Origin: Candidatus Aquivivens invisus
GTDB taxonomy: Bacteria; Omnitrophota; Gorgyraeia; Aquiviventales; Aquiviventaceae
Direction: 5' to 3'
DNA: 64,000 nt
Assembly: GCA_001804415.1 (NCBI GenBank)
Contig: MHGA01000006.1
Coordinates: 14,308-78,307, forward strand
Part shown: positions 4,815-58,336 of the stretch, in pieces
Layout of the letters: each line of letters opens with the position of its first letter
Position numbering within the stretch: the stretch's first letter is position 1
Program-made: the position numbers and the translations under genes
The notes under the pieces: model-generated
The model's database searches: none
Told to the model about the DNA's origin: nothing
The model's input: the letters and a program-made list of their open reading frames with translations, nothing else

Positions 4815-6760
4815 GGATGGTTCGCCAGATACAGCAACGCGACGACTCCCACAAAAAACACCAACACGTACTGCTGCACCTTCCCGGTTTGGCACAAGCG
4901 CAGCAACCGGCCGGCCGTCTTGGTCGTCCACGCCGTGCCGTTGACCGCCAAGCCGATAATGACGAACCGCTCAAACAGCGCGCAGGCGGAGGCGATGAGG
5001 CGCTGCTGAATCCGATCCACATACCAGGCATACGCGTCGTCGATACGGTAGTGCCGAAGGAGCAGCCGGTAGACCGGGCCGAACGTCTGCGCAATCTTCG
5101 ACGGTGAGATTGAGCGCGTGCCGTAGATCAACCATGCCAGCCCGACGCCGATGGCCACCACCACCAGGGAGGTCCCGGCGATGCCCCAATGCAGCTCGGC
5201 CGCCTGCTCACCCAGAAACGCCGGGATGCCGAGGTAACCGCCGACGATGGACAGCGCCGCCAGCACCGCCAGCGGAACGAGCATGATCGTCGGAGACTCG
5301 TGCGGATGCAATCCGTGGGCGGGCGACCGAGCCGGCACCATCCCTGCTGGCGAGGAAGTGCCGTCAGCCGCAGGGCTGACGGCCTTGCCCACAAACGCCA
5401 CACACCACACCCGCGCCGTGTAGAACGCGGTGAAACCCGCGGTCACCGTCCCCAACCAGTAGAGCGAGGCGTTGTGCTCATGGGCGAGCGCGAGGATGGC
5501 ATCCTTGCTGAAAAAACCGCTCAAGCCCGGCGCGCCGCACAACGCCAGCGCGCCGACGAAAAACGAGAGCGACGTCCATCGCATCGACGTCCACAGTCCC
5601 CCCAGCTCCCAGATGTTCTGCCGGTGGGTGCCGTGGATGACGCTGCCGGCGCTGAGGAACAGCAGCGCCTTGAAAAACGCGTGCGTGGTGAGGTGATACA
5701 TGCCCGCGCCCGCCCCGCCCAACCCCACCGCCATCACCATGTAGCCAAGCTGGCTCAGCGTCGAGTACGCGAGGATGCGCTTCAGGTCCGATTCCACGAT
5801 GGCCAGGCACGCCGAGAGAAACGCCGTCGCGCCACCGACCCACGCGATCACGGTCAAGACGGTGCGCAACTCCTCGAACAGCCAGAAGGTCCGGCAGAGC
5901 ATGTAGACCCCGGCCGCCACCATCGTGGCCGCATGGATGAGCGCGGAGACCGACGTGGGCCCTTCCATCGCATCCGGCAGCCACACGTGCAGCGGAAACT
6001 GCGCCGACTTGCCCAGCACCCCGCAGAACAGCAACAGCCCGATCCCCGTCAGCGCCGTAGGGGACAGCCACCCCAGCTCCATCAGGTGCGGAAGCCGCTG
6101 GTACAGCGTCTGGAACTGCACGCTGCGCTCAGCGGCGATCGGGCTTGAGACGGCCCACAGCCAGACAATCCCCAGCAGGAAGCCGAAGTCCGCGACGCGG
6201 TTGACCATGAACGCTTTCTTGCCGGCCTCAGCGGCGGCGGGTTTCTCGTACCAGTGGCCGATGAGCGCGTAGGAGCAGAACCCCACTAGCTCCCAGCCGA
6301 TGAACAGCTCGATCCAGTTGGTCGCCAGGACGATCGCCAGCATGGAGAAGGCGAACAGCGACAGCAGTCCGAAGTACCGGCTGTAGCCGGCGTCATCCGC
6401 CATGTAGCCGATGGAATAGAGGAAGATGGCACTGCCCACGCCGGTGACCACCAGCGACATGAGCAGGGAGAGCCGGTCGATGAGCACCCCGAACGGAATG
6501 GAGAAGTCCGGCAGCCCGATCCATGTCACCGATAGCTCCAGCGGCAGGGTCAGGCCTCCGCTGCGCGCTTGGACGAACAGCGACAGCGCGCAGGCAAACG
6601 AGAGCAGCAGCCCCCCATTGGCGAGCAGCGCGCTCAACCGCCGTCGGGAGATCCCGAAGAGGAGAATCCCCAGCGCCGAGACGAGCGGGCTGAGCAACAG
6701 GGTCCACGCGCAGAAAACGGCTGAAGGCTGAAGGCTGAAGGCTGAAGGCTGGGCTACCAT
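4811..6760 (-). CDS. nuoL: NADH-quinone oxidoreductase subunit L; 12-aa N-terminal extension encoded by a (GGCTGAA)n heptamer tract
   Basis: 649-aa antiporter-like subunit with long C-terminal helix region; ATG 6760 overlaps nuoK stop. Confidence 0.85.
   Translation of the reverse strand: MVAQPSAFSLQPSAVFCAWTLLLSPLVSALGILLFGISRRRLSALLANGGLLLSFACALSLFVQARSGGLTLPLELSVTWIGLPDFSIPFGVLIDRLSLLMSLVVTGVGSAIFLYSIGYMADDAGYSRYFGLLSLFAFSMLAIVLATNWIELFIGWELVGFCSYALIGHWYEKPAAAEAGKKAFMVNRVADFGFLLGIVWLWAVSSPIAAERSVQFQTLYQRLPHLMELGWLSPTALTGIGLLLFCGVLGKSAQFPLHVWLPDAMEGPTSVSALIHAATMVAAGVYMLCRTFWLFEELRTVLTVIAWVGGATAFLSACLAIVESDLKRILAYSTLSQLGYMVMAVGLGGAGAGMYHLTTHAFFKALLFLSAGSVIHGTHRQNIWELGGLWTSMRWTSLSFFVGALALCGAPGLSGFFSKDAILALAHEHNASLYWLGTVTAGFTAFYTARVWCVAFVGKAVSPAADGTSSPAGMVPARSPAHGLHPHESPTIMLVPLAVLAALSIVGGYLGIPAFLGEQAAELHWGIAGTSLVVVAIGVGLAWLIYGTRSISPSKIAQTFGPVYRLLLRHYRIDDAYAWYVDRIQQRLIASACALFERFVIIGLAVNGTAWTTKTAGRLLRLCQTGKVQQYVLVFFVGVVALLYLANHP
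6718..6752. repeat. Tandem heptanucleotide repeat (GGCTGAA)x4.7 inside the first 15 codons of nuoL
   Basis: ggctgaa repeated 4 times perfectly + ggctggg; read directly. Confidence 0.95.
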
Positions 6761-7056
6761 TTGAGCTGGCGGACCTCATCGACGTTGAGCGTCTTCAATT
6801 GGCGGGACATCAGGATCGCAATCGCGAGTCCCACGGTGACCTCAGCCGCCGCAACGGTGATCACAAACAGCACGATGAGCTGCCCGTTCAGATCCCCCAG
6901 CGCCCGACCGTAGGCGACAAACGACAGGTTGGCCGCGTTGAACATCAGCTCGATGCACAGCAGGATCATCAGCACGTTGCGCCGCGTCATGATCCCGACG
7001 AGCCCGATCGCAAAGAGCACCCCGCTGAGGACGAGGTAGTGATTGAGGGTGATCAT
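6754..7056 (-). CDS. nuoK: NADH-quinone oxidoreductase subunit K
   Basis: 100 aa, 3 TM, conserved NuoK sequence. Confidence 0.9.
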   Translation of the reverse strand: MITLNHYLVLSGVLFAIGLVGIMTRRNVLMILLCIELMFNAANLSFVAYGRALGDLNGQLIVLFVITVAAAEVTVGLAIAILMSRQLKTLNVDEVRQLKW

Positions 7057-7078
7057 CGAGGGAATGAATAGGTCGGGG

Positions 7079-7582
7079 TCATTGATCGTGTCGCGTGACG
7101 CGGGCGAGGGTGATCGCGCCGATGATGGCCGCGAGGATGAGGAAGGACGTCAGTTCAAACGGCAGCAGGTACGTCGTGAAGAGCAGGCGCGCGACCTCCC
7201 GCACCGTCCACGTCGCCGCCGCCGTCGTGCCCGGGCCGGAGGCGGTGCGCACCAACATCCCCACCAGCTGCACGCAGAAGAGTGCGCCCACCAGCGTGCC
7301 GATGGCGCGCAGCGTAAAGGGGCGCATGCGCGAGAGTGCCTCCGGAGCGAGATTGAGCAGCATGATGGCGAACAGGAACAGCACCAGCACCGCCCCGGCG
7401 TACAGGAGGATTTGGATCGCGGCCACAAAAAAGGCCCCCAGCATCACGAACAGGGAGGCCAAGCAGAACATCGCCACCAGGAGGGAGAGCACGCTGTAGA
7501 TCGGCTGGGGACTGGTGACGACCAGCAGCGCGGCCGCCAGCAGGACTGCGCTGAAGAGATAAAAACAGACTGCTTCCACCAT
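7079..7582 (-). CDS. nuoJ: NADH-quinone oxidoreductase subunit J (true start ATG 7582; the longer ORF to 8281 is an antisense extension)
   Basis: 167 aa MVEAVCFYLF..., NuoJ-type TM profile. Confidence 0.8.
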   Translation of the reverse strand: MVEAVCFYLFSAVLLAAALLVVTSPQPIYSVLSLLVAMFCLASLFVMLGAFFVAAIQILLYAGAVLVLFLFAIMLLNLAPEALSRMRPFTLRAIGTLVGALFCVQLVGMLVRTASGPGTTAAATWTVREVARLLFTTYLLPFELTSFLILAAIIGAITLARVTRHDQ

Positions 7583-7654
7583 TGGGCTCTTGCGGGGGGA
7601 TTCGGAAGGCCTTATTATAGAGGCTCCTTGTTGGGGTGTCCACTGAGGCCTCCC

Positions 7655-8779
7655 ATGAATCGTGCCCAACTCATCATCGCCGATAGCGAGAAAAACGCCA
7701 ACCTCTACTACGCCACGAGATTCCTGGCGCCCGATCCGTTCATCTTGGTTCAAGCCGACGGCCGCAAGCAGCTGGTCATGAGCGACCTGGAGCTGGATCG
7801 CGCCAAGGCGCAAGCGACGGTGGATGAGGTCCTCTCGTACACCGCCCTGGCCCGACAGGCCAAGCAACGGCTCAGCGGGGAACCGACGATGCTGGATGTC
7901 GTCGATGAGCTCTTGCAGGCGTACGGGGCGAAGGCGATCGAGGTCCCGCTCGATTTCAGCGTCGGGCACGCGGATGGGCTGAGGCAGCGGGGCTATGAGA
8001 TCGTCGCCAAGCCGGAGCCGTTTTACCCGCAGCGACTGCTGAAGTCCGAGGAGGAAATCGCCTTCCTCACCCAGACGCTTCGCGCGACGGAAGACGCGCT
8101 CGAATCGGCCATCGAGCTGATCCGCAACTCCGAGATCAAGGCCGACGGGACGCTGTGGATCGGTGGCAAGCCCCTCACGGTGGAGATGATCCGGAAGGTC
8201 CTGCACATGCAGCTGCTGGAGCGCAACTGCATCGGGCAGCACACGATCATCGCCTGCGGGGCGCAGGCGGTCGATCCGCACAACGAAGGTTCAGGCCCGC
8301 TGAGGGCCAACGAGCCGATCGTGATGGACGTGTTCCCGCAGCACGCCGATACGCGCTACTTCGCCGACATCACGCGCACCATCGTCAAGGGCAAGGCGGC
8401 TCCGAAAGTCCGCAAGATGTTCGACGCGGTGCGCGAGGGGCAGGAGATCGCCTTTCGGATGATCAAAGACGGCGTGGATGGGTCGGTGGTGCATCAAGCG
8501 ATCCTGGCCTCGTTCGAGTCGCTCGGGTTCAAGACGGGGCCGCAGGACGGCCGCATGCAGGGGTTCTTCCACGGGACGGGTCACGGGGTCGGCTTGGAGA
8601 TCCACGAGCCGCCGCGCATCAGCCCCCGCAAGGACATCTTGAGAGCCGGCATGGTGGTGACGGTTGAGCCCGGACTCTACTACATGGATGCCGGCGGGAT
8701 GCGCCTCGAGGACATGGTCGTGGTGACGAGCGACGGGTGTCTGGTGCTGACCCAGGCCCCGAAAATCTTGGAAGTGTAG
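7655..8779 (+). CDS. M24 family Xaa-Pro aminopeptidase / creatinase-type peptidase
   Basis: Creatinase N-domain plus pita-bread fold motifs (HGTGHGVGLEIHEPP, VEPGLY). Confidence 0.8.
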   Translation: MNRAQLIIADSEKNANLYYATRFLAPDPFILVQADGRKQLVMSDLELDRAKAQATVDEVLSYTALARQAKQRLSGEPTMLDVVDELLQAYGAKAIEVPLDFSVGHADGLRQRGYEIVAKPEPFYPQRLLKSEEEIAFLTQTLRATEDALESAIELIRNSEIKADGTLWIGGKPLTVEMIRKVLHMQLLERNCIGQHTIIACGAQAVDPHNEGSGPLRANEPIVMDVFPQHADTRYFADITRTIVKGKAAPKVRKMFDAVREGQEIAFRMIKDGVDGSVVHQAILASFESLGFKTGPQDGRMQGFFHGTGHGVGLEIHEPPRISPRKDILRAGMVVTVEPGLYYMDAGGMRLEDMVVVTSDGCLVLTQAPKILEV

Positions 8780-8783
8780 CGCC

Positions 8784-10403
8784 ATGCCCGAGACGCTCCA
8801 CACCACCGCCTTGACCCCTGAGCCCATCGTCAGGCTCGAGAACTATTTCCGCGAGCCGTACAACCTCGCCGTCGCGGCGGCGCGCACCTGTTACTCCTCC
8901 CAGGTGATCTCGACGGACGATGTGGACCGCGATGACCAAACCCGCGCCCAGCGGGACCGCATCGCGGAGAGCATCTACAAGGCCGGCCATCACACGACGA
9001 TCCAGCACCCCACCTTCCAGTTCGTCCTTGAGCGCGTGTCACGCCACTGCATTTGGTCCTTCCTCCACGCGCATCCTTTTTATAACAGCGAGCAGGTTTC
9101 ACAACGTTTTGTCGAGGTGAAGCCGGAGCATTTTACGATCCCGCCGCTGGAAGACGCCGCCCGGTCGATCTACCTCAAGGCGGTGCGCGCGCAGATGGAC
9201 GCCTACCACCGCCTGTGCGAGCTGGTGGAGCCGACGGTCAACCTGGAGTATCGGCGGATCTTTCCCCATCGCGAGCTGTCGGACAAACGCTGGAAGGGCG
9301 CCATCAAGAAACGCTGCCAGGAGGTGGCGAGGTACGTCTTGCCGGTGGCGACCCACGCGCACCTCTACCACACGATCAGCGGGATTACCCTGCACCGCTA
9401 CTGGCGGCTATGCCGGCAGTTTGACGTCCCGCTGGAGCAGCGCTTCGTCGTGCAGCGAATGGTCGAGGAGGTGTGCCGGGTCGATCCGAAGTTCATGGCC
9501 CTGGCGGAGGATCCGATGCCGATGGAGGAGACGCTGGAGTATCGCGTGTTCCAGGCTCTCCACGCCGGATCCCCGGCCCGCCTCGATGGCCAGAGTCCGG
9601 GGCGGGCAACCAACGGGACGGGCCGAGGCTTTGTCGATGAATTCGACCGGGAGCTCGGTGCGCACACCTCCAGGCTGGTGGATTACAAGGCGCGCGCGCA
9701 AGAGACCCTGGCGCAGGCGGTGCGATCGGTGCTCGGCGTACCCAGAGGACAGCTGTCAGATCTGCAGGCGATCGATCTGGTGCTCAATCCGGCGCGCAAC
9801 CCCTACCTGTCCGACACGCTGACCCTCACGACGGTCAGCAAGCTCTCCCGCGCCCTGGTGCATCCCCACTTTACATTTAAGAAGAAACTGTCGCACACCG
9901 CTGATTCGCAGGACCAGCGCCACCGCATGGTGCCCGCCTCGCGGCCGATCCTGCTGACCCACTTCGTCGCGGATCGACCGGACTACATCACCCCCGTCCT
10001 GATTCGCGCCACCCCGGAAGCTCTCGCCTGCTACGGCGAGGTGATGACCACGGTCTGGCGCGCCATCACCCGGTTGCTCGAGCTAGGGGTGAGCCACGAA
10101 TTCGCGCTGTACCTGCTCCCCAATGCGTTTCCGATCCGGTTTGAAGAGTCGGGCGATTTGCTGCACTTCCATCACAAGTGGGTGCAGCGGCTCTGCTACA
10201 CGGCGCAGGAGGAAATCTGGAACAGCTGTCGCGAAGAGGTGTTGCAGGTGACCGAGCGTTTTCCGGAGATCGGCCGGTACCTCCAAGCGCCGTGCTGGCC
10301 GAGGTCGCAGGCAGGGATTCGTCCGTACTGTCCCGAAGGCGACCGCTTCTGCGGCGTCGCCGTGTGGAAGCTGCCGGTCGAAGAGTACCAACGGCTCATT
10401 TGA
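8784..10403 (+). CDS. Tandem-domain ThyX-like (flavin-dependent thymidylate synthase family) protein, 539 aa
   Basis: Two ThyX-like halves; the first has GHHTTIQH...SRHCIWSFLHAHPF..SQRF (RHR replaced by HAH), the second retains RHRMVPAS. Confidence 0.55.
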   Translation: MPETLHTTALTPEPIVRLENYFREPYNLAVAAARTCYSSQVISTDDVDRDDQTRAQRDRIAESIYKAGHHTTIQHPTFQFVLERVSRHCIWSFLHAHPFYNSEQVSQRFVEVKPEHFTIPPLEDAARSIYLKAVRAQMDAYHRLCELVEPTVNLEYRRIFPHRELSDKRWKGAIKKRCQEVARYVLPVATHAHLYHTISGITLHRYWRLCRQFDVPLEQRFVVQRMVEEVCRVDPKFMALAEDPMPMEETLEYRVFQALHAGSPARLDGQSPGRATNGTGRGFVDEFDRELGAHTSRLVDYKARAQETLAQAVRSVLGVPRGQLSDLQAIDLVLNPARNPYLSDTLTLTTVSKLSRALVHPHFTFKKKLSHTADSQDQRHRMVPASRPILLTHFVADRPDYITPVLIRATPEALACYGEVMTTVWRAITRLLELGVSHEFALYLLPNAFPIRFEESGDLLHFHHKWVQRLCYTAQEEIWNSCREEVLQVTERFPEIGRYLQAPCWPRSQAGIRPYCPEGDRFCGVAVWKLPVEEYQRLI

Positions 10404-10411
10404 AGCAAGCG

Positions 10412-10460
10412 ACAAGGGACAAGGGACAAGGGACAAGGGACAAGGGACAAGGGACAAGGA
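10412..10460. repeat. Tandem heptanucleotide repeat (ACAAGGG)x7 between thyX-like stop and cld-like start
   Basis: Seven consecutive 7-nt units, last one ACAAGGA. Confidence 0.95.
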
Positions 10461-10462
10461 AC

Positions 10463-11209
10463 ATGACCATGCCGATACCGGTCGAGGAAGCCAAGAGCCA
10501 CGCCCCCGCGGTTCAACGGGAGGCCGTGGCTCGGCAGATCGTGGGGTTCTCGTTCTACCGCGTGGATCCGGAGTGGAGGCGGCTGCCGGCTTCGACGAAG
10601 CGCAGGCAGGGCGGGGAGCTGGCCGGTGTCATCACGCGCTACGCCAAGCAGCTGATGGTGCTGACCTATTCGCTCGTCGGGTTGAAGCCCGACGTCGACT
10701 TCTTGATCTGGCGCGTGGGCAACCGGCTTGAGCAGCTGCAGGCGATGTCGGCGGCGGTTCGGCAGACGGCGATGGCCGGGTACCTGTCGATGCCGCACGC
10801 GTATCTGTCGATGACGAAACGGTCCACCTACGTGGATAAGCTCGATCCCGATCACGCGGATGCGCGGCGGTTCATCACGCCGTTTCACAGCAAGTACCTG
10901 TTCGTCTATCCCTTCGTGAAAACCCACGAATGGTATCAGCTCCCGTTCGAACAGCGCCAGGCGATGATGGACGAGCATATCGTCCTGGGGAACACGTACC
11001 CCTCGGTGCGGATCCACACGACCTACGGCTTCGGGCTGGATGATCACGAGTTCGTCCTCGCCTTTGAAACCGACCACCCTCAGGACTTCCTCGATCTCGT
11101 GATGGCGATGCGCGAGAGCAAGGCTCGCCCCTACACCCTGCGGGATACGCCGATCTTCACCTGTGTGGCCAAACCGTTTGATGAGATTCTCAATGAAATC
11201 GGCTGCTGA
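10463..11209 (+). CDS. Chlorite dismutase family protein (Cld-like/HemQ-like), cytoplasmic (no signal peptide)
   Basis: C-terminal half aligns with Nitrospira Cld (YxFVKTxEWYxLxxxxRxxMMxEH, GLDDxxF..FET); ATG right after the heptamer tract. Confidence 0.75.
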   Translation: MTMPIPVEEAKSHAPAVQREAVARQIVGFSFYRVDPEWRRLPASTKRRQGGELAGVITRYAKQLMVLTYSLVGLKPDVDFLIWRVGNRLEQLQAMSAAVRQTAMAGYLSMPHAYLSMTKRSTYVDKLDPDHADARRFITPFHSKYLFVYPFVKTHEWYQLPFEQRQAMMDEHIVLGNTYPSVRIHTTYGFGLDDHEFVLAFETDHPQDFLDLVMAMRESKARPYTLRDTPIFTCVAKPFDEILNEIGC

Positions 11210-11214
11210 ACGGC

Positions 11215-11913
11215 ATGCCCGAGTGTCTCACCGCTGAGGTCACGTACCCGAGCGACGGCCTCACGCTCAGGGGCTTCCTGGCGCGGCCACACGATGAGCA
11301 GCCTCGTCCCGCCGTGGTGGTGATCCACGAATGGTGGGGGCTCAACGACCACATCAAGGATGTCACCCAGCGGTTTGCGAAGGAAGGTTACGTGGCGCTG
11401 GCGCCTGACCTCTACTCCCGTGTGGGTCACAAGGTGACGAAGGACCCCGACGAGGCGGCGAAGCTGATGGAACGCCTGCAATCGCAACACGCGCTCAAAG
11501 ACCTCAACGCGGCCACGCGCTATCTCAAGACGCTATCGTGTGTCGACCCCATCAAGATCGGGGCGGTGGGGTTGGGCATGGGAGGGACGTTCGCCTTGAT
11601 GGTGGCCTCACACAACTCCGATGTCAAAGCCTCGGTGTCGTTTTACGGGCAGATCCCCCCAACCGATAGCCTCAAGTATCTCCTCGCGCCTATCCTCTAT
11701 CTCCACGGGGGGCAGGACGCGTGGATTCCGTCGCGCGAGGCGCAGCGCCTTGCTCAGGGGCTCAAACAATTCGGACGGCCGGGCGAGGTGCAGAGCTACG
11801 CGGATTGCCCGCACGCCTTTTTCAACGACACCCATCCTGAGGTGTATCGTTCGAACGAGGCCAAGGACGCCTGGCAACGGACCGCGCGTTTCCTCGCAAC
11901 CTACCTGAGGTAG
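11215..11913 (+). CDS. Dienelactone hydrolase family protein
   Basis: VVIHEWWGLNDH, alpha/beta hydrolase DLH layout, 232 aa. Confidence 0.75.
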   Translation: MPECLTAEVTYPSDGLTLRGFLARPHDEQPRPAVVVIHEWWGLNDHIKDVTQRFAKEGYVALAPDLYSRVGHKVTKDPDEAAKLMERLQSQHALKDLNAATRYLKTLSCVDPIKIGAVGLGMGGTFALMVASHNSDVKASVSFYGQIPPTDSLKYLLAPILYLHGGQDAWIPSREAQRLAQGLKQFGRPGEVQSYADCPHAFFNDTHPEVYRSNEAKDAWQRTARFLATYLR

Positions 11914-11915
11914 CC

Positions 11916-13929: not shown

Positions 13930-13969
13930 CCCCCACACCAATTGTCGCAGACAACAATTGGTGTGGGGG
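13930..13969. promoter_or_regulatory. Perfect 16-bp-arm palindrome (CCCCCACACCAATTGT-N7-ACAATTGGTGTGGGGG) immediately after the stop at 13929
   Basis: Read directly; no T-run on either side. Confidence 0.6.
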
Positions 13970-14015
13970 CTTGACCCTCTCGTTGCGGGGTGTCAGAATA
14001 GCCAGAGGAGGATCG

Positions 14016-14336: not shown

Positions 14337-14343
14337 CCCTTCC

Positions 14344-15195: not shown

Positions 15196-15216
15196 CGGCG
15201 CTCCTTATCCAATCTA

Positions 15217-15245: not shown

Positions 15246-15284
15246 CATATTAGTGGAATTGAGTTGGTAGCAGGGAGGGAGAGG

Positions 15285-15551
15285 ATGAAGGAGATCACAG
15301 CTCTCGAGCTTCGGAAGCGCTTTGGGGAAGTCATGGAAGATGTTCGTTATCGCAAGGAGCCGTATCTCGTAAAGCGGAACGGACGCCCCATGATCGTGCT
15401 GCTTGATATCGATGCGTATCAGGCCGATGAAAGTCGCCGAAAGGAAGACGTCTTCATTGAAGACTATACCGAGGAGCGTCTTCAGGAATTCTTAGAGGAA
15501 GACCGCCTGGATCCCGGCGTGCAGGCCCGTGTGAATCGGCGTCTGCGATAA
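15285..15551 (+). CDS. Phd/YefM-family antitoxin
   Basis: MKEITALELRKRFGEVMEDV...PYLVKRNGRPMIVLLDIDAYQ typical YefM/Phd N-domain. Confidence 0.8.
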   Translation: MKEITALELRKRFGEVMEDVRYRKEPYLVKRNGRPMIVLLDIDAYQADESRRKEDVFIEDYTEERLQEFLEEDRLDPGVQARVNRRLR

Positions 15552-15983
15552 ATGGTCCGGGTCTTCCTGGATGCGAACGTGTATTTCGCTGGTTGTTATT
15601 CTGCGAAGGGGGCCTCGGCGCTCCTGCTGAAGCTGGCGGTGCGCAAACGCCTCCAAGTGGTGGCATCTCGGCTAGTATTGCGGGAAGCCGAGCGCAACTT
15701 GCATGCGAAAGCCGATCGCAAGGCTCTGCGCGTGTTTCATCGGTTCTTAGAGACTGCCACCCCGCGCATACTTCGAACGCCATCCGCCAAAACGCTCGCT
15801 GCCTACGAGACGATTATTCATCCGAAAGACGTCCCAGTGCTGGCTGCGGCCGTTGAAGCAAAGGTTGACTATCTGGTGACGCTGGACCGCCGGCATTTCT
15901 TTGCCCCCCTCGTCGAGGCCCGAATTAAATCGCCGCGCATTCTGGCCCCCGGCGACTTCCTACAGGAATGGCTGTCGAGATGA
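15552..15983 (+). CDS. PIN-domain (VapC-like) toxin
   Basis: FLDANVY PIN signature, TAAATG junction with antitoxin. Confidence 0.75.
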   Translation: MVRVFLDANVYFAGCYSAKGASALLLKLAVRKRLQVVASRLVLREAERNLHAKADRKALRVFHRFLETATPRILRTPSAKTLAAYETIIHPKDVPVLAAAVEAKVDYLVTLDRRHFFAPLVEARIKSPRILAPGDFLQEWLSR

Positions 15984-18574: not shown

Positions 18575-19702
18575 ATGTCGAGAGCAGAGGCGCTGAAGCT
18601 CTTTGAGGCACGCGATCTCATCGGCCTCGGGCAATTGGCGAACGAGGTCAAGCAAGCCACATGGGGCGATCGCGCCCACTTTGTGATCAACCGCCAGATC
18701 AACCCTACGAACGTCTGCGTCCTGTCCTGCCGGTTCTGCGACTTCGCGACCAAGCGGGGACGCCCTAACGCCTACGAGATGACGATCCAGGACGTCTTAG
18801 ATCGCCTCAGCCCGGAGCTGCGGGAAGTCCACATCGTGCAGGGGCTGCATCCGGACTGGACGTGGGATTTCTACCTGGAGATGCTCCGCGCGATCAAGAC
18901 GAGCTTCCCCCGGATGCAGATCAAAGCCTGGACGGCGGTTGAGATTGACTATTTCTCCAAGAAGTTTCGCCTCTCGGTCGAAGAGGTCCTGGTGCAGATG
19001 AAGGAGGCGGGGCTCTCCGCCTTGCCCGGCGGGGGCGCGGAGGTGTTTTCCGAACGGGTGCGCAAGGCGCTGTTTCCCTTTAAAATCGGCGCGCCGAGGT
19101 GGCTGGAGATTCACCGGATCGCGCATCAGCTGGGCATCCCGACCAACGCGACCTTGCTGTACGGCCACATCGAGACGCGCGAAGAACGCGTGGATCACCT
19201 CCTGAAGCTTCGCGAACTCCAGGATGACACCGGCGGCTTCATGAGCTTCATCCCGTTGGCGTATCAAGTCGGCAAGACGCGCGTGGTCGAGCGCCAGGCG
19301 TCGGCGATCGAGGACCTCAAGACGATGGCGATCTCCAGGCTGCTCCTGGACAACATCCCCCACATCAAAGCCTACTGGGTGACGATGGGTGAAGAGACGG
19401 CGTCGATCGCCCTGAACTTCGGGGCCGATGATCTCGACGGGACGATCGGGGAGGAGCGGATCATGCATGCCGCGGATGCCGCAAGCCCGATTCGGCAGAC
19501 CCGCGAGCGGCTGGTGGAACTCATCCGAGCCTCCGGATGCGTGCCGGTGGAACGCGATGCCCTCTATCACGAGGTCGCGGTGTGCGACCCTTCGACTCGC
19601 GCCACGGCCTCTGGCCGTGGGCTCGCTCAGGATTCCGCCCCACGGGCGCAGGAAGAGGTGCCACGGGCTCTGCCCGTGGGGCTCCACAATGGCCACCGGT
19701 AA
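18575..19702 (+). CDS. Radical SAM menaquinone biosynthesis enzyme, MqnC/MqnE family (paralog 1; alternative start 18524); about 45-aa C-terminal extension encoded by hairpin repeats
   Basis: NPTNVCVLSCRFCDFA cluster motif, CofG/CofH-like fold. Confidence 0.75.
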   Translation: MSRAEALKLFEARDLIGLGQLANEVKQATWGDRAHFVINRQINPTNVCVLSCRFCDFATKRGRPNAYEMTIQDVLDRLSPELREVHIVQGLHPDWTWDFYLEMLRAIKTSFPRMQIKAWTAVEIDYFSKKFRLSVEEVLVQMKEAGLSALPGGGAEVFSERVRKALFPFKIGAPRWLEIHRIAHQLGIPTNATLLYGHIETREERVDHLLKLRELQDDTGGFMSFIPLAYQVGKTRVVERQASAIEDLKTMAISRLLLDNIPHIKAYWVTMGEETASIALNFGADDLDGTIGEERIMHAADAASPIRQTRERLVELIRASGCVPVERDALYHEVAVCDPSTRATASGRGLAQDSAPRAQEEVPRALPVGLHNGHR

Positions 19703-19736
19703 AGTCAGAAGTCAAAAGTCAGAAGTCGGAAGTACA
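19702..19736. repeat. Tandem heptanucleotide repeat (AAGTCAG)x5 (imperfect) between mqnC/E paralog 1 and mqnA
   Basis: aagtcag aagtcaa aagtcag aagtcgg aagtaca, followed by CT-rich run. Confidence 0.9.
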
Positions 19737-19766
19737 CTTCCCTCTTCCCCCTTCGCTCTTCCCCCT

Positions 19767-20522
19767 TTGACGGTGGCCCGCATTCCGTATCTCAACTGCG
19801 CGCCGTTTTTTGCCGGCCTTCCGCTCAAGCCAGGATGGGAGGTGGTCGACGTTGCGCCCAGGCGTTTAGGCCAGATGGCTGAGGAGGGCAAGTTCTTGGC
19901 GGGCGTGATGTCGCTGGCGGATTACCTGCGGTTGCAGGATCGCTTCGAGCGGATCGGGCCGCTGGGGGTGGCGGTGCGGGGACGGGTGGGCAGCGCGCTG
20001 CTGTTTTCGCGCAAACCCCTTCGGCAGCTGGACGGCGCCTGCGTCGCGGTGACGGACGAAACGTCGACGACCGCCCTGTTGCTTCGCGTGATCCTGGAAC
20101 AGCGTTACCACCTGACGGTTCGACTCGCGCCGCACGCCCACCCGACCCAGCAGGATGCTGACGCGGTGCTGCTGATCGGCGATGAGGCCTTGCGGTTTGG
20201 CAGCGTCAACCGGCTCTATCCGTTTGAGATTGATGTCGCCTTTGAATGGTGGTTGTGGCAGCATCTGCCCTGCGTCTTCGCCGTGTGGGCGATCCGCGCG
20301 GACGCCGGCGCGAGCACCAAGCGGGAGGTGAGCGAAGCCCTCCAGCGCACCCTGGCGGTCAACCTGCGTCGCCTCGATGAGCTCGTCATCCAACCGGCTG
20401 CCTCCCTGCACGTTCCGGCCGAGGACCTCACGATGTATCTGAGCCGGTTCATCTATCGTCTCAGCGCCGAGGAGGAGCGCGCCATCCAGCGCTTCGCCCA
20501 ACTGTCCCAATCCATGGCATGA
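19767..20522 (+). CDS. mqnA: Chorismate dehydratase MqnA (start uncertain: TTG 19767/GTG 19773, or ATG 19689 if heptamer tract is translated)
   Basis: RIPYLNCAPF MqnA signature, PF02621-type fold. Confidence 0.75.
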   Translation: MTVARIPYLNCAPFFAGLPLKPGWEVVDVAPRRLGQMAEEGKFLAGVMSLADYLRLQDRFERIGPLGVAVRGRVGSALLFSRKPLRQLDGACVAVTDETSTTALLLRVILEQRYHLTVRLAPHAHPTQQDADAVLLIGDEALRFGSVNRLYPFEIDVAFEWWLWQHLPCVFAVWAIRADAGASTKREVSEALQRTLAVNLRRLDELVIQPAASLHVPAEDLTMYLSRFIYRLSAEEERAIQRFAQLSQSMA

Positions 20523-33154: not shown

Positions 33155-33232
33155 CCGTTGTTTCCTCGGATGGCGGCCCGACCACCGACAACTCCTCTAA
33201 GAAGGAGCATGCGCTGCCTTCTTAGACCCTTC
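33134..33232 (-). terminator. Copy 1 of a repeated two-hairpin module ending (minus orientation) in GC hairpin plus U-run; downstream of ArsB/NhaD-family gene
   Basis: Hairpins ctctaagaagg/ccttcttagag and ccgccatccg/cggatggcgg, conserved linker GGTGGTCGGGCC. Confidence 0.6.
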
Positions 33233-34842: not shown

Positions 34843-34925
34843 CGCAAAATAAAAACCGCCATCTAGCAAACGCTAGGTGGCGGCCCGACCACTAGAAACT
34901 CCTCCGGGCGATATACCCGGACCCT
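34843..34925 (-). terminator. Copy 2 of the repeated two-hairpin/terminator module (downstream of mscS)
   Basis: GGAAGCGCAAAATAAAAACCGCCATC identical to copy 3; first hairpin replaced by ccggg/cccgg stem. Confidence 0.6.
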
Positions 34926-44023: not shown

Positions 44024-44120
44024 AGCGCAAAATAAAAACCGCCATCCAGCAATGCTAGATGGCGGCCCGACCACCGAACCTCCTCTAAGAAGGGGCACAA
44101 GACATCCTTCTTAGACCCTT
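44024..44120 (-). terminator. Copy 3 of the repeated two-hairpin/terminator module (downstream of APC permease)
   Basis: Minus orientation: GGGUCUAAGAAGG..CCUUCUUAGAGG-AGGUUCGGUGGUCGGGCC-GCCAUCUAGCAUUGCUGGAUGGCGG-UUUUUAUUUU. Confidence 0.65.
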
Positions 44121-44167: not shown

Positions 44168-45487
44168 TCACCCCACTCGCCGGCGGGAGAGCGCGTAAAA
44201 GGGTAGCGCTAGGACGAGGAGGCCGAAGCCGAAGAGCGCCTCACGCGGCTGCTTCACGCAGACGTCGAGGATGAAGCCGCACATCACCAAGGAGAACAGC
44301 AGCGGGGTCAGCGGATACCCCCAGGCGCGGTAGGGCCTTGGGCGCGTGGGATGCGCGCGCCGCAGGACGATCACCCCCAGCACCGCCATCACGAAGAACA
44401 CGGAGATGACGACCGTGGAGTAGGTCATGATCTGGTCAAACGTCTTGGTGAACACTAGCACCACGGCGATCGCCGCGTTGGTCCACAAGGCCAGGGCCGG
44501 CGTGTGATACGTCGGGTGCACGGCGCTCAACCATTCGAAGAGGGGATGATCCTTGCCCATCGCATACAGGATGCGCGCGCCGGTGAGGATGTAGCCGTTG
44601 AGCGCGCCGAACGCCGAGCAGGCTACCATGACGGCGATGAACGTCGCCCCCGGATTTCCCCACAGGCGTTCCAGCACATGCGAGGCGACCAGCGTGGTGG
44701 TCGGCAAGTCGGTCATGTCCACGCAGACCAAGTAGCTGATGTTCACCAGCAGATACAAGACAGTCACCAGCGCCAGGCCTCCGAGAATCGAACGCGGCAG
44801 CGTGCGGGACGGATCGCGGATTTCTTCGGCGACGTAGGCGGCCTCCGTCCATCCGCCGAAGGTCCACAGCACAAACACAAACGCCACGCCGGACGACTGG
44901 ATGACGGGCAGGGTCAGGGCGGGGAGGCGCCAGTCAACGGCCACGCCGCGCCCGCCGGCCAACGCAATCACGCCGGTTGCGATCACGCTGACCAACGCCC
45001 CGATCTTCAGCACGGTAAAAATGTTTTGGACCGCTGTGCCCCGCCGCACCCCCAAGACGTTGATGGCGGTCAGCAGCACAATCGAGCCGGCGGCGAGGCC
45101 TCGCAGCGCAACCGGCGACATCGGGAACAACCGCCCGAGGTACTCCGCGAACACAAAACCCAGGATGGCGATGGTGCCGGTTCGCTCGATGAACAGTTTC
45201 GTCCAGCCGAAGAGAAAGCCCCAGAACCGGCCGTAGCCTTGCGTGATGTAGACGTAGTCGCCCCCGCTCTGTGGAAACAGCGTGGACAATTCGGCGTAGC
45301 ACAACGCACCGCACAATGACACGAGTCCCCCGACGACCCAGAGCGCGAGGATCAGCGAGGGACTTGGGAGGTGCGTGGCGATTGAGCTGGCCGTGCGGAA
45401 GATCCCGACGCCGACGATGCAGCCCACCACCAGCATCGTCGCATCGAAGAGCCCCAGCGCCCTAATGAGGGAAGACGGCTTGCTCAT
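44168..45487 (-). CDS. APC-family amino acid permease (start ATG 45487; the GTG 45505 alternative lies inside the repeat)
   Basis: 12-TM APC family profile. Confidence 0.75.
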   Translation of the reverse strand: MSKPSSLIRALGLFDATMLVVGCIVGVGIFRTASSIATHLPSPSLILALWVVGGLVSLCGALCYAELSTLFPQSGGDYVYITQGYGRFWGFLFGWTKLFIERTGTIAILGFVFAEYLGRLFPMSPVALRGLAAGSIVLLTAINVLGVRRGTAVQNIFTVLKIGALVSVIATGVIALAGGRGVAVDWRLPALTLPVIQSSGVAFVFVLWTFGGWTEAAYVAEEIRDPSRTLPRSILGGLALVTVLYLLVNISYLVCVDMTDLPTTTLVASHVLERLWGNPGATFIAVMVACSAFGALNGYILTGARILYAMGKDHPLFEWLSAVHPTYHTPALALWTNAAIAVVLVFTKTFDQIMTYSTVVISVFFVMAVLGVIVLRRAHPTRPRPYRAWGYPLTPLLFSLVMCGFILDVCVKQPREALFGFGLLVLALPFYALSRRRVG

Positions 45488-45492
45488 AGCGG

Positions 45493-45559
45493 CGACAAGC
45501 GACACGCGACAAGCGACAAGAAGAGAATCATGTCACTTGTCCCTTGTCACTTGTCACTC
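45493..45559. repeat. Inverted arrays of heptamers: (CGACAAG)x4, 10-nt spacer, (CTTGTCA/TGTCACT)x4; long hairpin between M15 peptidase stop and permease start
   Basis: Read directly; right arm supplies the last codons and stop of the peptidase. Confidence 0.9.
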
Positions 45560-49635: not shown

Positions 49636-49672
49636 GGGTGTATAATAACGCCACACAGGAGGGCGAGTCATC

Positions 49673-51923: not shown

Positions 51924-51968
51924 CAAATTATTTTTTATCAGCTAATATTTAGCATAAGCGAATTAAAC

Positions 51969-52403
51969 ATGACGATCAGCCGATCCCACGTCAGCGAAGC
52001 GGTGGCCCAGCTCATGCCCAACATCATCCGGGGCGTGCAGCTGGACTTTTTTGTCAAGCGCCGGGTCACCCAGACCCAGTTGCTCATGCTGCTGGCGATC
52101 CGAGGATACGGACATCCCTCAATGGGTCGTCTGGCCGATGGCCTCCACGTGAAGATGCCCACCGCCACCGGCATCGCGAGCCGCTTGGCCCGTGCGGGGT
52201 ACGTCCGGCGCGCCCCAGGAGAAACCGATCGCCGGCAAGTCCTGGTGCAGCTCACGCCGAGGGGCGAGCAGTTTATCCGCGATTTTCAATCCGTCATCCG
52301 CCGGCGCTGGGAGGACGTGCTGGGTTCGCTCAACGCCGGGGAGCTGGCGGCGTTCCACCGGGTGGTTACCAAACTCTCCGCATCGCTGCAAGGAACCCTC
52401 TAA
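51969..52403 (+). CDS. MarR-family transcriptional regulator
   Basis: wHTH MarR core, 144 aa. Confidence 0.8.
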   Translation: MTISRSHVSEAVAQLMPNIIRGVQLDFFVKRRVTQTQLLMLLAIRGYGHPSMGRLADGLHVKMPTATGIASRLARAGYVRRAPGETDRRQVLVQLTPRGEQFIRDFQSVIRRRWEDVLGSLNAGELAAFHRVVTKLSASLQGTL

Positions 52404-52407
52404 CCTC

Positions 52408-53658: not shown

Positions 53659-53757
53659 GCATCAAGGCAGCTCCGGTGCGGCGATCCCGGGCTGCCTTGA
53701 TACGCGTGGGGGGCTTAACCGTTGGCCCCGCCTTCGGCGGGGCGCACAGGTGGGGGG

Positions 53758-56700: not shown

Positions 56701-56880
56701 GGGCCTGGGGCGGAGACGCGCATCCCGATGGCGGTCGCGGTCATCGGCGGGGTGCTGCTCTCAACCCTCCTGACCTTGTTTGTGGTGCCGTGCGCGTATA
56801 GCCTCATCCCTGAGAAAAACAAAGGCCCTTGGGGATTCCCAAGGGCCTTGTCGATTGCGCAGGAAGCAAAAGGCTATTGA
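53758..56880 (+). CDS. RND efflux transporter (AcrB/CzcA superfamily)
   Basis: 1040 aa, 12-TM RND topology with two large periplasmic loops. Confidence 0.85.
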   Translation: MTLSDLSIKKPVFAWMLMAGLIVFGTISFKRLGVSQMPDVEFPVVSVDLRWEGAAPEVMETDVVDVTEDVITSIQGIRDISSSIRQGQATITIEFDLERDIDVAVQEVQTKLAQAQLRLPRELDPPIVTKVNPQDQPIMWLGVSGDVPKRELMEYVQDHLKDQFQTISGVGEIFLGGFLERNLRVWIDADKLEVAQLTIEDVITAIQREHAELPAGRLETGAKEFNVRAMGEASSVEEFGRILIPSRGGQPIYTPIALKDVAVIEDGLADQRRISRIMGETAVGLGIRKQRGANDVEVARRVRRKMAEVAQRLPQGIQLGVNFDRTRFIEDSINELTFTLILSAILTSLVCWAFLGSWSATLNILMAIPTSIVGSFICLYFLGFTLNTFTLLALSLAIGVVVDDAIMVLENIVRHREQGLARIEAARLGARQITSAALAATLSIIAIFLPVAFMAGLIGKFFFEFGMTISIAVALSLLEALTLAPMRCAQFLRIGERRTQFGKAVESAFRILAVRYHAALIWSLRNRRMVLLASAAIFVVSLGVLPWLRKEFVPPQDQSMFLVRLQTPVGSSIEFTDEQFKLAEQFAMSRPEIKRYFGAIGGFGGGEVNAGILFITLHPPRQRRIVPPDRHPLSQRELMALFRKELNAIPDVKASIQDLSLSGFSAQRGFPIEFSIRGPDWEQLGVIAQEMERRMSRNPLMVDVDSDYLTGVPEVRVRPDRRQAAARGVSMATIARTINALIGGERVAKYTRGGRRYDVRVRLMPTQRLQADDIERLWVWNRHGELVQLKDIVTITENPSLLTITRKNRERAISVFSNIAPGRSQAEALREVQRIAKDVLPQGYHAVFGGSAQTFRESFQSLLFVLWLGVLVAYMVLASQYNSYLHPVLVLLALPFSVSGALMALWVGGQSLNIYSFIGLILLMGIVKKNSILLVDFTNQLREQGQGVHEALLNACPMRLRPILMTSISTVAAAVPPALAVGPGAETRIPMAVAVIGGVLLSTLLTLFVVPCAYSLIPEKNKGPWGFPRALSIAQEAKGY

Positions 56881-57212
56881 AGGAGCTGCGTCCCGCCTTC
56901 CGGAAGGGGGACGTCGATCTGCGGGATGGGGAAGGTTGCCACGTGCAACGCCCCGCCGACGGTCTGCCCGATGCCGTTGAAGAGCCCTTCGCCGATGCCG
57001 AGGAAGAAGTTCCCTCCACCCTGGATGGCTTCCGCCGGTTCGCTGAAGATCTCCGTCCAGCCCAGCAGCCCGTTCTTGAGGCCGTAGACGAACTTGCCCT
57101 TTACCTTGCCAAGATAGTCCACCTCTTGCGTCCACGGGCTTGCCGCAAACGCCGCAATGGGCGCTGCCACCAACGCGAGGACCACTGCGATTGCCCCTAA
57201 CCGTCTGGTCAT
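56874..57212 (-). CDS. Small secreted protein, paralog family member
   Basis: Signal peptide; GKFVYGLKNGLLGWTEIFSEPAEAIQG...VGGALHVATFPIP. Confidence 0.6.
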   Translation of the reverse strand: MTRRLGAIAVVLALVAAPIAAFAASPWTQEVDYLGKVKGKFVYGLKNGLLGWTEIFSEPAEAIQGGGNFFLGIGEGLFNGIGQTVGGALHVATFPIPQIDVPLPEGGTQLLQ

Positions 57213-57348
57213 GGGTACCCTCCTCTGTTAACACAACACTCTAGCAGGGTTCTATAAAAATGCAACAAAAATTATCAAAAACCATCAAACGTTAAATCTG
57301 AATTTTCGTTTTCCTTGAGCCCATTAATCAGTACACTATTCTCGGCCC

Positions 57349-58221
57349 ATGAAACGGGTGTTGGTCGTCTACAAGAAAAGCGCCTATCAGCTCCACGTGG
57401 TGGAGCGGAAGGATCCGTGGCTGAGGCGGCTGCTGCGAGCGAGTCACCCCGATGCCCTCGACTGGCTCGCGGCCCACCGCGTGCAACAACGCACCCTCGA
57501 TGCCGTGGTGCGCAGCCTGCGCAGCCTCGGCGTGCGGGAGACCCTGGTCTATCGCGAGCGCCTTCGGCCCGCCACCGGCTACGATCTGGTGCTGAGTGTG
57601 GGAGGCGACGGGACGGTGCTGCAGGCCTCCCACTTCATGAAGGACACGCCGCTCCTGGGCGTGAACTCAGATCCGACGCGCAGTGAGGCCGTGTTCTGCG
57701 CGGCCACCGCCTCGGACGTCCATCGAGTCGTGCGGGACGCGTTGGAGGGCCGGCTGCCCGCGCTCTTGCTCTACCGCTTGGCCGTTGCGCTCAACGGCCG
57801 GCGGCTGGGTCCGTTAGCGCTCAATGACGTGCTGATCGCCCATGAGGATCCCGCCACGATGAGCCGCTATCGCCTGCGGCTCGGCGCCCGGTGTGAAGAT
57901 CACAAGAGTTCAGGATTGTGGGTGGCCACCGCCGCGGGCTCCAGCAGCGCGATGGCCGCGGCGGGAGGAAGGCGCCTGCCCTGGGGGGCCAAGCGGTTTC
58001 AGTACCGGCCTCGCGAGCTGTACCAGGGGCGCTTGACCCGTTGTCGCCTGACAGGCGGGCAGCTTTCGCCCCCACGGTGTCTTGAGTTGGTCTGGTTGAT
58101 GCGGGAGGGTGCGGTCTTTCTCGACGGGCCGCATCTCAAACACCGACTGCGATTCGGGGATCGGGTGACGGTGTCGCTCTCGCCGCAACATCCATTCCGC
58201 GTGCTGGGCTTACGCCGATGA
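57349..58221 (+). CDS. nadK: NAD kinase
   Basis: GGDGT motif, NAD kinase fold. Confidence 0.8.
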   Translation: MKRVLVVYKKSAYQLHVVERKDPWLRRLLRASHPDALDWLAAHRVQQRTLDAVVRSLRSLGVRETLVYRERLRPATGYDLVLSVGGDGTVLQASHFMKDTPLLGVNSDPTRSEAVFCAATASDVHRVVRDALEGRLPALLLYRLAVALNGRRLGPLALNDVLIAHEDPATMSRYRLRLGARCEDHKSSGLWVATAAGSSSAMAAAGGRRLPWGAKRFQYRPRELYQGRLTRCRLTGGQLSPPRCLELVWLMREGAVFLDGPHLKHRLRFGDRVTVSLSPQHPFRVLGLRR

Positions 58222-58228
58222 GACAGAG

Positions 58229-58336
58229 CGACAAGCGACAAGCGACAGGTAACAAGTCGAACAGGCCTACTCGAGGGCAGCTTCCTCTGTTGTGGTGTTG
58301 CCTTGTCGCTTGTACCTTGTCGCTTGTCCCTGTCCT
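58229..58336. repeat. Inverted arrays of heptamers (CGACAAG)x3-5 ... 37-nt spacer ... (CTTGTCG/CTTGTMC)x5 between nadK and memo-ammecr1
   Basis: Read directly; ATG 58218 (overlapping nadK TGA) is in frame through the array with the downstream gene. Confidence 0.9.

Follow-up and report, generated by a model that had tools for sequence, protein, structure and literature searches.

Heptanucleotide repeat arrays at tight operon junctions in a genome segment of Candidatus Aquivivens invisus, three of them probably translated as protein N-termini

Tandem heptamers at five operon junctions

We analysed a stretch of 64,000 nucleotides (64 kb; in the following, the window) from contig MHGA01000006.1 of the Omnitrophota bacterium Candidatus Aquivivens invisus, in which tandem arrays of seven-nucleotide units lie at the junctions of neighbouring genes. 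The sequence originates from Rifle aquifer groundwater metagenomes; the closest NuoL relatives are found in GC-rich Omnitrophica metagenome-assembled genomes (MAGs), and a protein listed by NCBI for Omnitrophica WOR_2 bacterium RIFCSPLOWO2_02_FULL_63_16 (P0121) is 100% identical, over its own length, to the Memo-AMMECR1 product of the window. An initial annotation, made from the sequence alone, had counted five heptamer tracts, all of them at gene boundaries. Exactly five loci were indeed recovered by Tandem Repeats Finder (TRF), direct reading and period scans, and all five border genes that were identified by Pfam, the flanking pairs being co-directional and of housekeeping type throughout. 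The loci are listed below with the units as called by TRF.

6719-6751 (-), T1: GGCTGAA, 4.7 copies with 100% matches (in gene sense CCTTCAG, 4.7 copies, 33 nt, inserted in frame right behind the nuoL ATG); nuoK upstream, nuoL downstream
10406-10463 (+), T2: CAAGGGA, 8.3 copies (read as eight copies of GACAAGG, an untranslated spacer); thyX upstream, a chlorite-dismutase-like (HemQ-type) gene downstream
19702-19733 and 19737-19767 (+), T3: AAGTCAG, 4.6 copies, and CTTCCCC, 4.4 copies; MqnC-like radical SAM gene upstream, MqnA gene downstream
45492-45520 and 45531-45558 (genes on -), T4: GCGACAA, 4.1 copies, and TGTCACT, 4.0 copies; VanY peptidase gene upstream, amino-acid permease gene downstream
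58222-58256 and 58301-58335 (+), T5: GACAAGC and CCTTGTC/GCTTGTC; NAD kinase gene upstream, Memo-AMMECR1 fusion downstream

A scan for exact runs yielded three arrays of period 7 and none of any other period between 4 and 15, with about zero arrays expected by chance from 30 dinucleotide-preserving shuffles. Lenient scans returned six arrays of period 7 in the five loci; periods 4-13 and 15 were otherwise empty, the matches of period 14 were the same arrays as those of period 7, and a still looser scan revealed no further degenerate heptamer tracts in the window. The tandem units (three exact, six lenient arrays) are accordingly longer than chance would allow, as is the rule for heptanucleotide long simple sequence repeats (LSSRs). 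The GACAAG core that had been proposed as common to the tracts is borne out for T2, T4 and T5, which together hold 17 matches to GACAAGNGACAAG with at most one mismatch, compared to 0.23 expected, and there are none outside. With respect to the inverted partner arrays suggested earlier, the pairs at 45.5 kb and 58.2 kb are truly inverted, and CTTCCCC, the partner of AAGTCAG in T3, is complementary in part.

In a corrected gene map the window contains about 5.2 kb of intergenic DNA, mostly in gaps of 130-490 nt, and none of these gaps harbours an array. If the array were removed, each of the five junctions would measure about 10 nt or less, or the genes would overlap. Correspondingly, the array-free nuoK/nuoL junction in the related loci L004 and L005 is a 7-nt overlap, and the thyX-cld junction measures 1-3 nt in L005, L006 and L236. 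A preference for co-directional junctions was considered as well and was not significant within the window. As 49 of the 61 window junctions are co-directional, co-directionality is uninformative, and the contrast that counts is that between tight junctions and long intergenic regions.

That the tracts belong to a non-random family at gene starts, as the initial annotation had supposed, holds lineage-wide: arrays are found at nuo or thyX-cld junctions in L006, L005, L239, L236, L237 and L156. L006, whose NuoL is 74% identical, carries TTTTGGA (four copies) and CTTCCGA (4.5 copies) between nuoJ and nuoK, GTTCAGA (five copies) and CCAAAAT (four copies) between nuoK and nuoL, and CCTTCAC (4.5 copies) between nuoG and nuoH; the RNA of its nuoJ-K arrays is predicted to form periodic partial pairing (-20.6 kcal/mol, z=-3.5). 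The array density is 94/Mb in the window, 75/Mb in the loci of five relatives (L004, L005, L006, L024 and L156) and 22.6/Mb in a background control made up of 930 kb around distant nuoL genes in unrelated bacterial DNA (79 loci, mostly with 36-49% NuoL identity). Among periods 4-12, none other than 7 gave arrays in the window or in the five relatives' loci; in the controls period 7 is the leading class, with 22.6/Mb versus at most 9.7/Mb for any other period, and is concentrated in 12 of the 79 loci. The window lineage is about three to four times denser in heptamer arrays than the background and not different in kind. A shared GTCATTC/TCATTCG family occurs on unrelated soil-metagenome contigs near distant nuoL genes (L158, 3429-3456; L163, 3752-3787 and 7352-7385; L165, 231-265), and other lineages, too, have their own recurrent heptamer unit near nuo operons.

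Three arrays after overlapping start codons

T1, T3 and T5 each stand right after an ATG which overlaps the 3' end of the upstream gene (AAATGGTAG, ATGGCCACCGGTAA and ATGA, respectively), and the frame of this ATG is open across all three, with stops in at least one of the other two frames in each case. Their spans of 33, 66 and 114 nt are multiples of three; those of T2 (58 nt) and T4 (67 nt) are not. The earlier proposal that the tracts follow in-frame ATGs is therefore valid for T1, T3 and T5 and does not apply to T2 and T4, which are located between a stop and a start. The tendency of LSSRs to keep units that are not a multiple of three outside coding DNA is not reflected here, as T1, T3 and T5 reside inside the 5' ends of open reading frames (ORFs) and T2 and T4 alone are intergenic. 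Judged by their reading frames, T1, T3 and T5 most likely provide NuoL and MqnA with N-terminal extensions and Memo-AMMECR1 with its signal peptide. A heptamer array that is read through all three frames results in a peptide with a period of seven residues.

For T1, the start region is as follows.

6754-6760 (-): overlap of nuoK stop and nuoL start, AAATGGTAG, which reads K-W-stop in NuoK and contains the nuoL ATG

T1 is predicted to encode QPSAFSLQPSA in the N-terminal linker of NuoL, ahead of the first transmembrane helix (TM1), and there is no canonical start codon between T1 and the conserved C-A-W-T-L-L with which TM1 begins. Among 117 homologues the linker from 'MV' to the conserved W comprises 2 to 27 residues, and identity at an offset of seven residues is enriched in these linkers (z=5.1), every other offset remaining at z<=2.0. 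Long in-frame linkers number 25, versus no more than 9 proteins whose called start lies at W or beyond it, where a ratio of 1:2 would be expected without constraint (binomial P=1.9e-6, for sequences that are related and hence not independent). In L241, whose NuoL is called from a downstream start, a scaffold gap occupies the junction. The nuoK/L arrays of the relatives occupy the site of T1 with rotations or near-variants of one unit, all in frame: CCTTCAG in the window, CTTCAGC in L239, GCCTTGA/GCCTTCA in L237 and L238, GCCTCCA in L156 and CCACCCT in L236. In the third copy of L237, TCA stands at precisely the position at which the unit GCCTTGA would have given an in-frame TGA. We compared the consensus assemblies of one population, namely the window and ten further assemblies, and T1 is identical in the 11 sequences; its RNA is unstructured (about -6 kcal/mol, z=1.21). 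In L239, a spacer of about 110 nt (4690-4802) with direct repeats, GATTCCGCAGAT twice and ATGGT three times, separates the nuoK stop from the nuoL ATG, and the heptamer array follows the nuoL ATG despite this spacer.

At T3, the following features were located.

19689-19691 (+): probable MqnA start ATG ('MAT...'), overlapping the 3' end of the mqnC-like radical-SAM gene; homologues begin MAT or MA
19702-19733 (+): T3a, 4.6 copies of AAGTCAG, its first base being the last base of the mqnC-like stop TAA (19700-19702)
19737-19767 (+): T3b, 4.4 copies of CTTCCCC, a partial complement of T3a (GAAG/CUUC every 7 nt)

In the MqnA frame, T3a is predicted to encode KVRSQKSEVGS and T3b LPSSPFALPP, the two making up 66 nt or 22 codons, so that the predicted peptide across T3 is KVRSQKSEVGSTLPSSPF. 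MqnA homologues begin with 'MA(T)' 8-17 residues ahead of ARIPYLN. P0242, which is 85% identical to the MqnA of the window, is devoid of the extension (MATREMLARIPYLN), and P0243 (73% identical) possesses a homologous in-frame extension, MATGEVRSQKSEVGSKLPPSPF… compared to MATGKVRSQKSEVGSTLPSSPF… in the window. A test for a periodicity of seven residues in the MqnA N-termini of the homologues was negative. The RNA of T3 is predicted to engage in periodic partial pairing (-23.6 kcal/mol, z=-2.5), and the tract is identical in seven sequences of the population.

The features at T5 extend over 114 nt or 38 codons (58222-58335).

58218-58220 (+): ATG of the Memo-AMMECR1 ORF, overlapping the NAD-kinase stop (ATGA)
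58222-58256 (+): 5' arm, about four copies of GACAAGC, encoding the predicted basic n-region SDKRQATGNKS...
58301-58335 (+): 3' arm, the inverted partner, five copies of CCTTGTC/GCTTGTC, encoding the predicted hydrophobic core LVACTLSLVPV, followed by EVTA-EPR (the hyphen marking the conserved site)

Read from the ATG at 58218, the product begins with MRQSDKRQATGNKSNRPTRGQ, which has six K/R within residues 1-21, and continues with LPLLWCCLVACTLSLVPVL, with a hydropathy of up to +2.4, and EVTA-EPR. An n-region, an h-region and A-EPR precede VAGxFYP in all 119 motif-bearing Memo homologues; since this layout is in the window available solely from the ATG at 58218, T5 would be translated in the Memo frame. 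Several homologues (P0134, P0135, P0138 and P0142) exhibit h-regions with a period of seven residues. The inverted arms of T5 are predicted to form a hairpin (-56.8 kcal/mol, z=-4.7), and the length of the tract is the same in 11 sequences of the population. The same NAD kinase-Memo junction in L240 bears an inverted pair, GTCCATA/TATGGAC, whose unit is unrelated to the GACAAGC/GCTTGTC of the window. This pair is predicted to fold with the AUG in the loop (-61.9 kcal/mol, z=-7.7), and the TATGGAC/TATGGTC array 3' of the ATG encodes, as read from the DNA, the h-region LWTIVYGLLVYGLWTMVYGL; L240 would thus certainly translate its 3' array as an h-region.

The Memo-AMMECR1 fusions of the clade (58218-59735, +, in the window; P0122-P0240) carry an apparent Sec-type signal peptide with the conserved A-EPR site. 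The AmmeMemoRadiSam radical-SAM partner should be cytoplasmic, which makes a signal peptide on Memo-AMMECR1 unexpected. Two cold-shock-domain genes (8739-8942 and 11576-11797, both -) flank the NAD kinase-Memo pair of L240, which may be coincidence; cold-shock proteins have been proposed as binders of heptamer repeats (PMC4679880).

Two spacer arrays and their length in the population

T2 lies between the thyX stop (10401-10403) and the start of the chlorite-dismutase-like gene, either ATG 10463 or ATG 10469. It is purine-rich, each of its eight units contains an AAGG resembling a Shine-Dalgarno (SD) motif, and its RNA is unstructured (about -6 kcal/mol, z=0.07). The array has eight copies in the window, seven in eight assemblies and six in one; in a further one (L127) a gap of NN falls inside the array. 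The length polymorphism across bins that the initial annotation had recommended looking for is hence present at T2, in exact 7-nt steps, and T1, T3, T4 and T5 are invariant; among the five loci, T2 alone displays shifts of copy number in whole units, as expected of an LSSR. Because T2 differs by exact 7-nt steps within one population, slippage is at work, in agreement with the repeat-generating process that had been suggested. A coding function of T2 was also considered. The tract is in frame with a TTG solely in the 8-copy allele, the 6- and 7-copy alleles break the frame, and these 7-nt length alleles rule out a coding role. The unit at the thyX-cld junction is GACAAGG (eight copies) in the window, GTGTGCT (four copies) in L005 and AGCTTGT (13 copies, running off the contig end) in L239.

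Heptamer arrays were also seen to break short-read assemblies: the L239 contig ends (1-93) inside its 13 copies of AGCTTGT, and the NN scaffold gap of L127 is located around 11650. The upstream gene product, ThyX (8784-10403, +), has 539 aa with two Thy1 domain stretches and has the appearance of a flavin-dependent thymidylate synthase that was duplicated in tandem and fused; the long form is kept in the relatives (527-547 aa).

T4 consists of two arms, given here in gene sense.

45531-45558 (-): 5' arm, four copies of GACAAGK, holding the stop codon of the VanY-family gene (45547-45549)
45492-45520 (-): 3' arm, four copies of CTTGTCG, ending 4 nt before the ATG of the amino-acid permease gene (45485-45487)

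The arms are predicted to fold into a hairpin of -45 kcal/mol (z=-7.2) that is not followed by a U-tract. A scan for terminators and promoters around T4 gave no match, and a role as intrinsic terminator was rejected on this ground. As the VanY stop codon resides in the 5' arm and the hairpin ends 4 nt before the ATG, translation of the permease probably depends on completion of the upstream gene. The length of T4 is invariant in 11 sequences, with one single-nucleotide polymorphism in the loop. A 15-codon ORF, MILFLSLVACRLSPL, extends through the loop and the 3' arm (45485-45532, -), and the TGA with which it stops shares bases with the permease ATG (ATGA). This ORF may have arisen by chance or may serve as a leader peptide for coupling.

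A scan of the window with Rfam 15 produced no match on any tract at the gathering threshold. Three matches to nhaA-I (RF03057, a proposed Na+ riboswitch) were obtained elsewhere, at 34875-34924, 33168-33229 and 44057-44118, all on the minus strand; they score 42.5-42.9 bits against a gathering score of 37, and three within 11 kb are unusually dense. A PhdYeFM antitoxin/PIN toxin pair (15264-15983, +) is found inside the UbiA-UbiX-UbiD-Mqn menaquinone gene cluster.

Origin of the arrays and comparison with known repeats

Taken together, we consider it fairly probable (roughly 62%) that the tracts are heptanucleotide LSSRs which are made by slippage and persist at tight operon junctions, with T1, T3 and T5 translated in frame and without phase switching. 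It might be hypothesized that the arrays arise and change in length by slipped-strand mispairing, as is evident for T2 and likely for the others, and that over longer times the unit drifts and is then re-homogenised, which would leave orthologous junctions with rotated, mutated or unrelated units. Selection would let arrays persist solely at tight stop/start junctions inside operons, with two possible outcomes. T2 and T4 would be untranslated inter-cistronic spacers consisting almost entirely of repeat, and T1, T3 and T5 would be in-frame insertions right after an overlapping start codon, in segments that are probably only loosely constrained, such as the NuoL linker before TM1, a stretch extending the N-terminus of MqnA and, in the Memo signal peptide, the n- and h-regions. 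Inverted partner arrays probably owe both their origin and their lasting complementarity to template switching between the arms, and they would fold into strong mRNA hairpins; with a hairpin of the T4 type, downstream initiation may depend on ribosomes that terminate in the 5' arm.

Several points weigh against this interpretation. The GACAAG core occurs in three of the five loci, always as the 5' arm in gene sense, which neutral slippage alone does not explain, and the inverted pairs with unrelated units at one and the same junction in the window and in L240 hint at selection for structure and not at tolerance alone. Translation of T1, T3 and T5 is what we infer from the frames; gene callers disagree on the starts of nuoL, mqnA and Memo, P0001 and P0121 begin at a downstream TTG, and the MqnA start has been called at four different positions. 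The ATG within AAATGGTAG is forced by the C-terminal K-W of NuoK, and its conservation therefore provides no independent evidence. In addition, the in-frame statistics rest on related sequences, and three DNA examples were picked for periodic-looking proteins. The Memo N-termini as a family do not show a specific excess of identity at an offset of seven residues, a test rendered unspecific by the differing composition of n- and h-regions, which raises all offsets. Finally, the sampled DNA amounts to 64 kb of the source genome plus about 170 kb from relatives, mostly from the surroundings of the nuo and mqn loci.

Alternatively, the arrays might be selected cis-regulatory RNA elements that act in translational coupling, in mRNA stability or processing, or as sites for a heptamer-reading binder such as S1, a cold-shock protein or CsrA, binding of which has been proposed for TAACTGA repeats (PMC4679880). 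We regard this as unlikely, although a number of observations would fit. All arrays are located at start codons within operons, like the TAACTGA repeats of Beggiatoaceae (PMC4679880), the hairpins of T4, T5, L240 and the control locus L206 (an inverted pair with -71.4 kcal/mol, z=-12) are very stable, the unstructured RNA of T2 presents eight AAGG motifs that resemble an SD sequence, the 5' arm is built on GACAAG in each of T2, T4 and T5, and two cold-shock-domain genes lie beside the L240 locus. The inverted pairs of the window and L240 at the NAD kinase-Memo junction have unrelated units, implying that both arms changed together; template switching can, however, keep arms complementary without selection. 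The units vary between loci and between orthologous junctions and occur in both orientations, which makes a single sequence-specific binder unlikely. Moreover, T1 and T2 are without structure, a coding constraint acts on three of the five tracts, and many relatives are array-free at the same junctions, indicating that the arrays are dispensable.

A reading of the paired arrays on their own, which we hold to be quite doubtful, is that they form a distinct selected class of hairpins built from repeats, the arms of which would co-evolve, as the pairs of the window and L240 at the NAD kinase-Memo junction suggest, which would gate translation of the downstream cistron and which might be read as a ready-made signal peptide. 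The reverse complement of a hydrophilic codon series is hydrophobic, and one hairpin can thus supply both parts of a signal peptide, its one arm encoding the basic n-region and its other arm the hydrophobic core. If this were true, simple repeats could give rise to regulatory RNA structure and to sequences for protein targeting alike.

The initial annotation had further raised the possibility of contingency loci, in which gain or loss of one 7-nt unit shifts the frame after the ATG and toggles nuoL, mqnA and Memo, similar to the CTCTT repeats of opa; this appears improbable. The unit length is not divisible by three, the arrays of T1, T3 and T5 follow directly after an in-frame ATG at the 5' end of the coding sequence, T5 falls into the coding sequence of a signal peptide as in opa (PMC3745409), T1 is a perfect array, and slippage does occur in this organism, as T2 demonstrates. 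In contrast, T1 is identical in 11 sequences, T3 is identical in seven and T5 is equal in length in 11, from different samples and assemblers, so that no length alleles of a coding tract are seen in 7-11 assemblies and the noncoding T2 alone varies. T3 and T5, two of the three coding tracts, are imperfect (75-94% matches), by which slippage is suppressed, and the in-frame state is kept across species. The genes concerned (nuoL, mqnA, Memo-AMMECR1 and also the cld-like and permease genes) are housekeeping genes; they are single-copy genes of functions such as respiration and menaquinone synthesis and not of surface structures, host interaction or restriction-modification.

That T4 and T5 are miniature mobile elements inserting at gene junctions, akin to MITEs (miniature inverted-repeat transposable elements) or repetitive extragenic palindromic (REP) sequences, is very improbable. 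Both are imperfect palindromes with similar arms on a GACAAG core, and REP, bacterial interspersed mosaic (BIME) and MITE elements likewise reside between co-directional genes. But the T5 loop is single-copy in the window and unrelated to that of T4, GACAAG seeds are found in the window at T2, T4 and T5 only, neither a target-site duplication nor an association with a transposase was seen, the arms are tandem heptamers and not a fixed terminal inverted repeat, the orthologous junction of L240 has a different unit, and T5 is in frame within an ORF; we therefore do not assign the two tracts to the REP, BIME or MITE elements. An assembly or sequencing artefact is practically negligible, as the same arrays occur in more than ten independent assemblies from different samples, assemblers and repositories and in diverged forms in other species, even though arrays do disturb assembly (the NN gap of L127 in T2, the contig end of L239 in a 13-copy array).

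Returning to LSSRs formed by slippage as the preferred explanation, heptamers are the commonest long simple repeats in bacteria, and this lineage provides a clean natural experiment on their origin and role: at one and the same junction some relatives have no array and others carry a different unit, and one array is slipping in a wild population. If T1, T3 and T5 are truly translated, essential housekeeping genes can take up repeats with a unit not divisible by three and domesticate them as N-termini, a signal peptide among them. This would bear on the origin of new N-terminal and targeting sequences and on the annotation of gene starts in MAGs, where callers disagree at every one of the three sites. 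A practical concern is that the arrays break or gap short-read assemblies.

The initial annotation had taken heptamer arrays to be a hallmark of cyanobacteria. This view does not hold, since heptanucleotides are described as the most abundant long simple sequence repeat class in most bacterial genomes, with replication slippage as the proposed cause, according to Mrazek et al. 2007 as conveyed by PMC4679880 and PMC4692102. Heptamer families are known in Xanthomonas, Nostoc, Burkholderia, Beggiatoaceae and Bacteroidetes (PMC4679880, PMC4692102), and period 7 tops the 930 kb of controls. With one genome scanned per species, the GACAAGN array pattern GACAAGNGACAAGNGACAAGNGAC occurs in at least 119 stretches, and among the matches listed are Pyrinomonadaceae, Bacteroidales, groups of the candidate phyla radiation (CPR), Planctomycetota, Chloroflexi, Actinomycetota, an Oscillatoriaceae cyanobacterium and one Omnitrophota MAG.

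With the LSSRs of 5-11 nt units, as outlined by Mrazek, Guo & Shah 2007 in the account given by PMC4679880 and PMC4692102, the tracts share tandem heptamers beyond chance, several unit families per genome, a mostly intergenic location, copy changes in steps of one unit (T2) and, here, period 7 as the sole enriched period. In the same account, units that are not a multiple of three avoid coding DNA, whereas three of our five tracts are in frame inside 5' coding sequence; the Omnitrophota host, the strict preference for tight operon junctions and the recurrent inverted partners differ as well.

The units of the window (CCTTCAG, GACAAGG, AAGTCAG, CTTCCCC and GACAAGC/GCTTGTC) include no consensus of the short tandemly repeated repetitive (STRR) sequences of cyanobacteria. 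In Calothrix, the STRR1-3 units are CCCCAGT, TTGGTCA and CAACAGT. In Nostoc and Anabaena the unit is GGGGA(C/T)T (PMC4692102). Dispersed tandem heptamers in several unit families and an intergenic location, including an intra-operon one (pecE-pecF), are shared with the STRRs of Calothrix, Nostoc and Anabaena (PMC4692102). The differences lie in the phylum and the units, and the arrays described here are shorter, are not G-rich, with no potential for G-quadruplexes, and are in part probably translated.

The placement is similar to that of the TAACTGA repeats of marine Beggiatoaceae, some Cyanobacteria and Bacteroidetes, which are heptamers directly 5' of starts, often within operons of essential genes; they replace a recognisable Shine-Dalgarno sequence, the spacers of relatives are shorter and repeat-free, and strains differ by 7-nt indels (PMC4679880). 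Genomes with TAACTGA repeats have one dominant unit in one orientation, from which a specific binding factor was suggested, while at least seven units, both orientations, inverted pairs and unit changes at orthologous sites are observed here, so that a single dominant forward unit upstream of starts is not what we find. The GGGAATC repeats of Xanthomonas (PMC4692102) are likewise intergenic, mostly between co-directional pairs, and keep their position between species with variable length and sequence, some pairs being inverted; they are G-rich, quadruplex-forming, of one family and closer to the end of the upstream gene, unlike our units, which are not G-tracts. The CTCTT repeats of Neisseria opa (PMC3745409) share with T5 a unit that is not a multiple of three in the coding sequence of a signal peptide. 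They are, however, perfect pentamers in surface adhesins that switch at about 1e-3 per generation, whereas T5 is imperfect, invariant in the population and located in a gene of housekeeping type.

The tracts are of a known kind, the bacterial heptanucleotide LSSR of the STRR/TAACTGA/GGGAATC type, in a lineage, the Omnitrophota, for which our literature searches turned up no description of heptamer repeats. Compared to these known systems, what is unusual is the strict residence at tight junctions, the probable domestication as in-frame N-termini including a signal peptide, and the recurrent inverted pairs whose arms change together.

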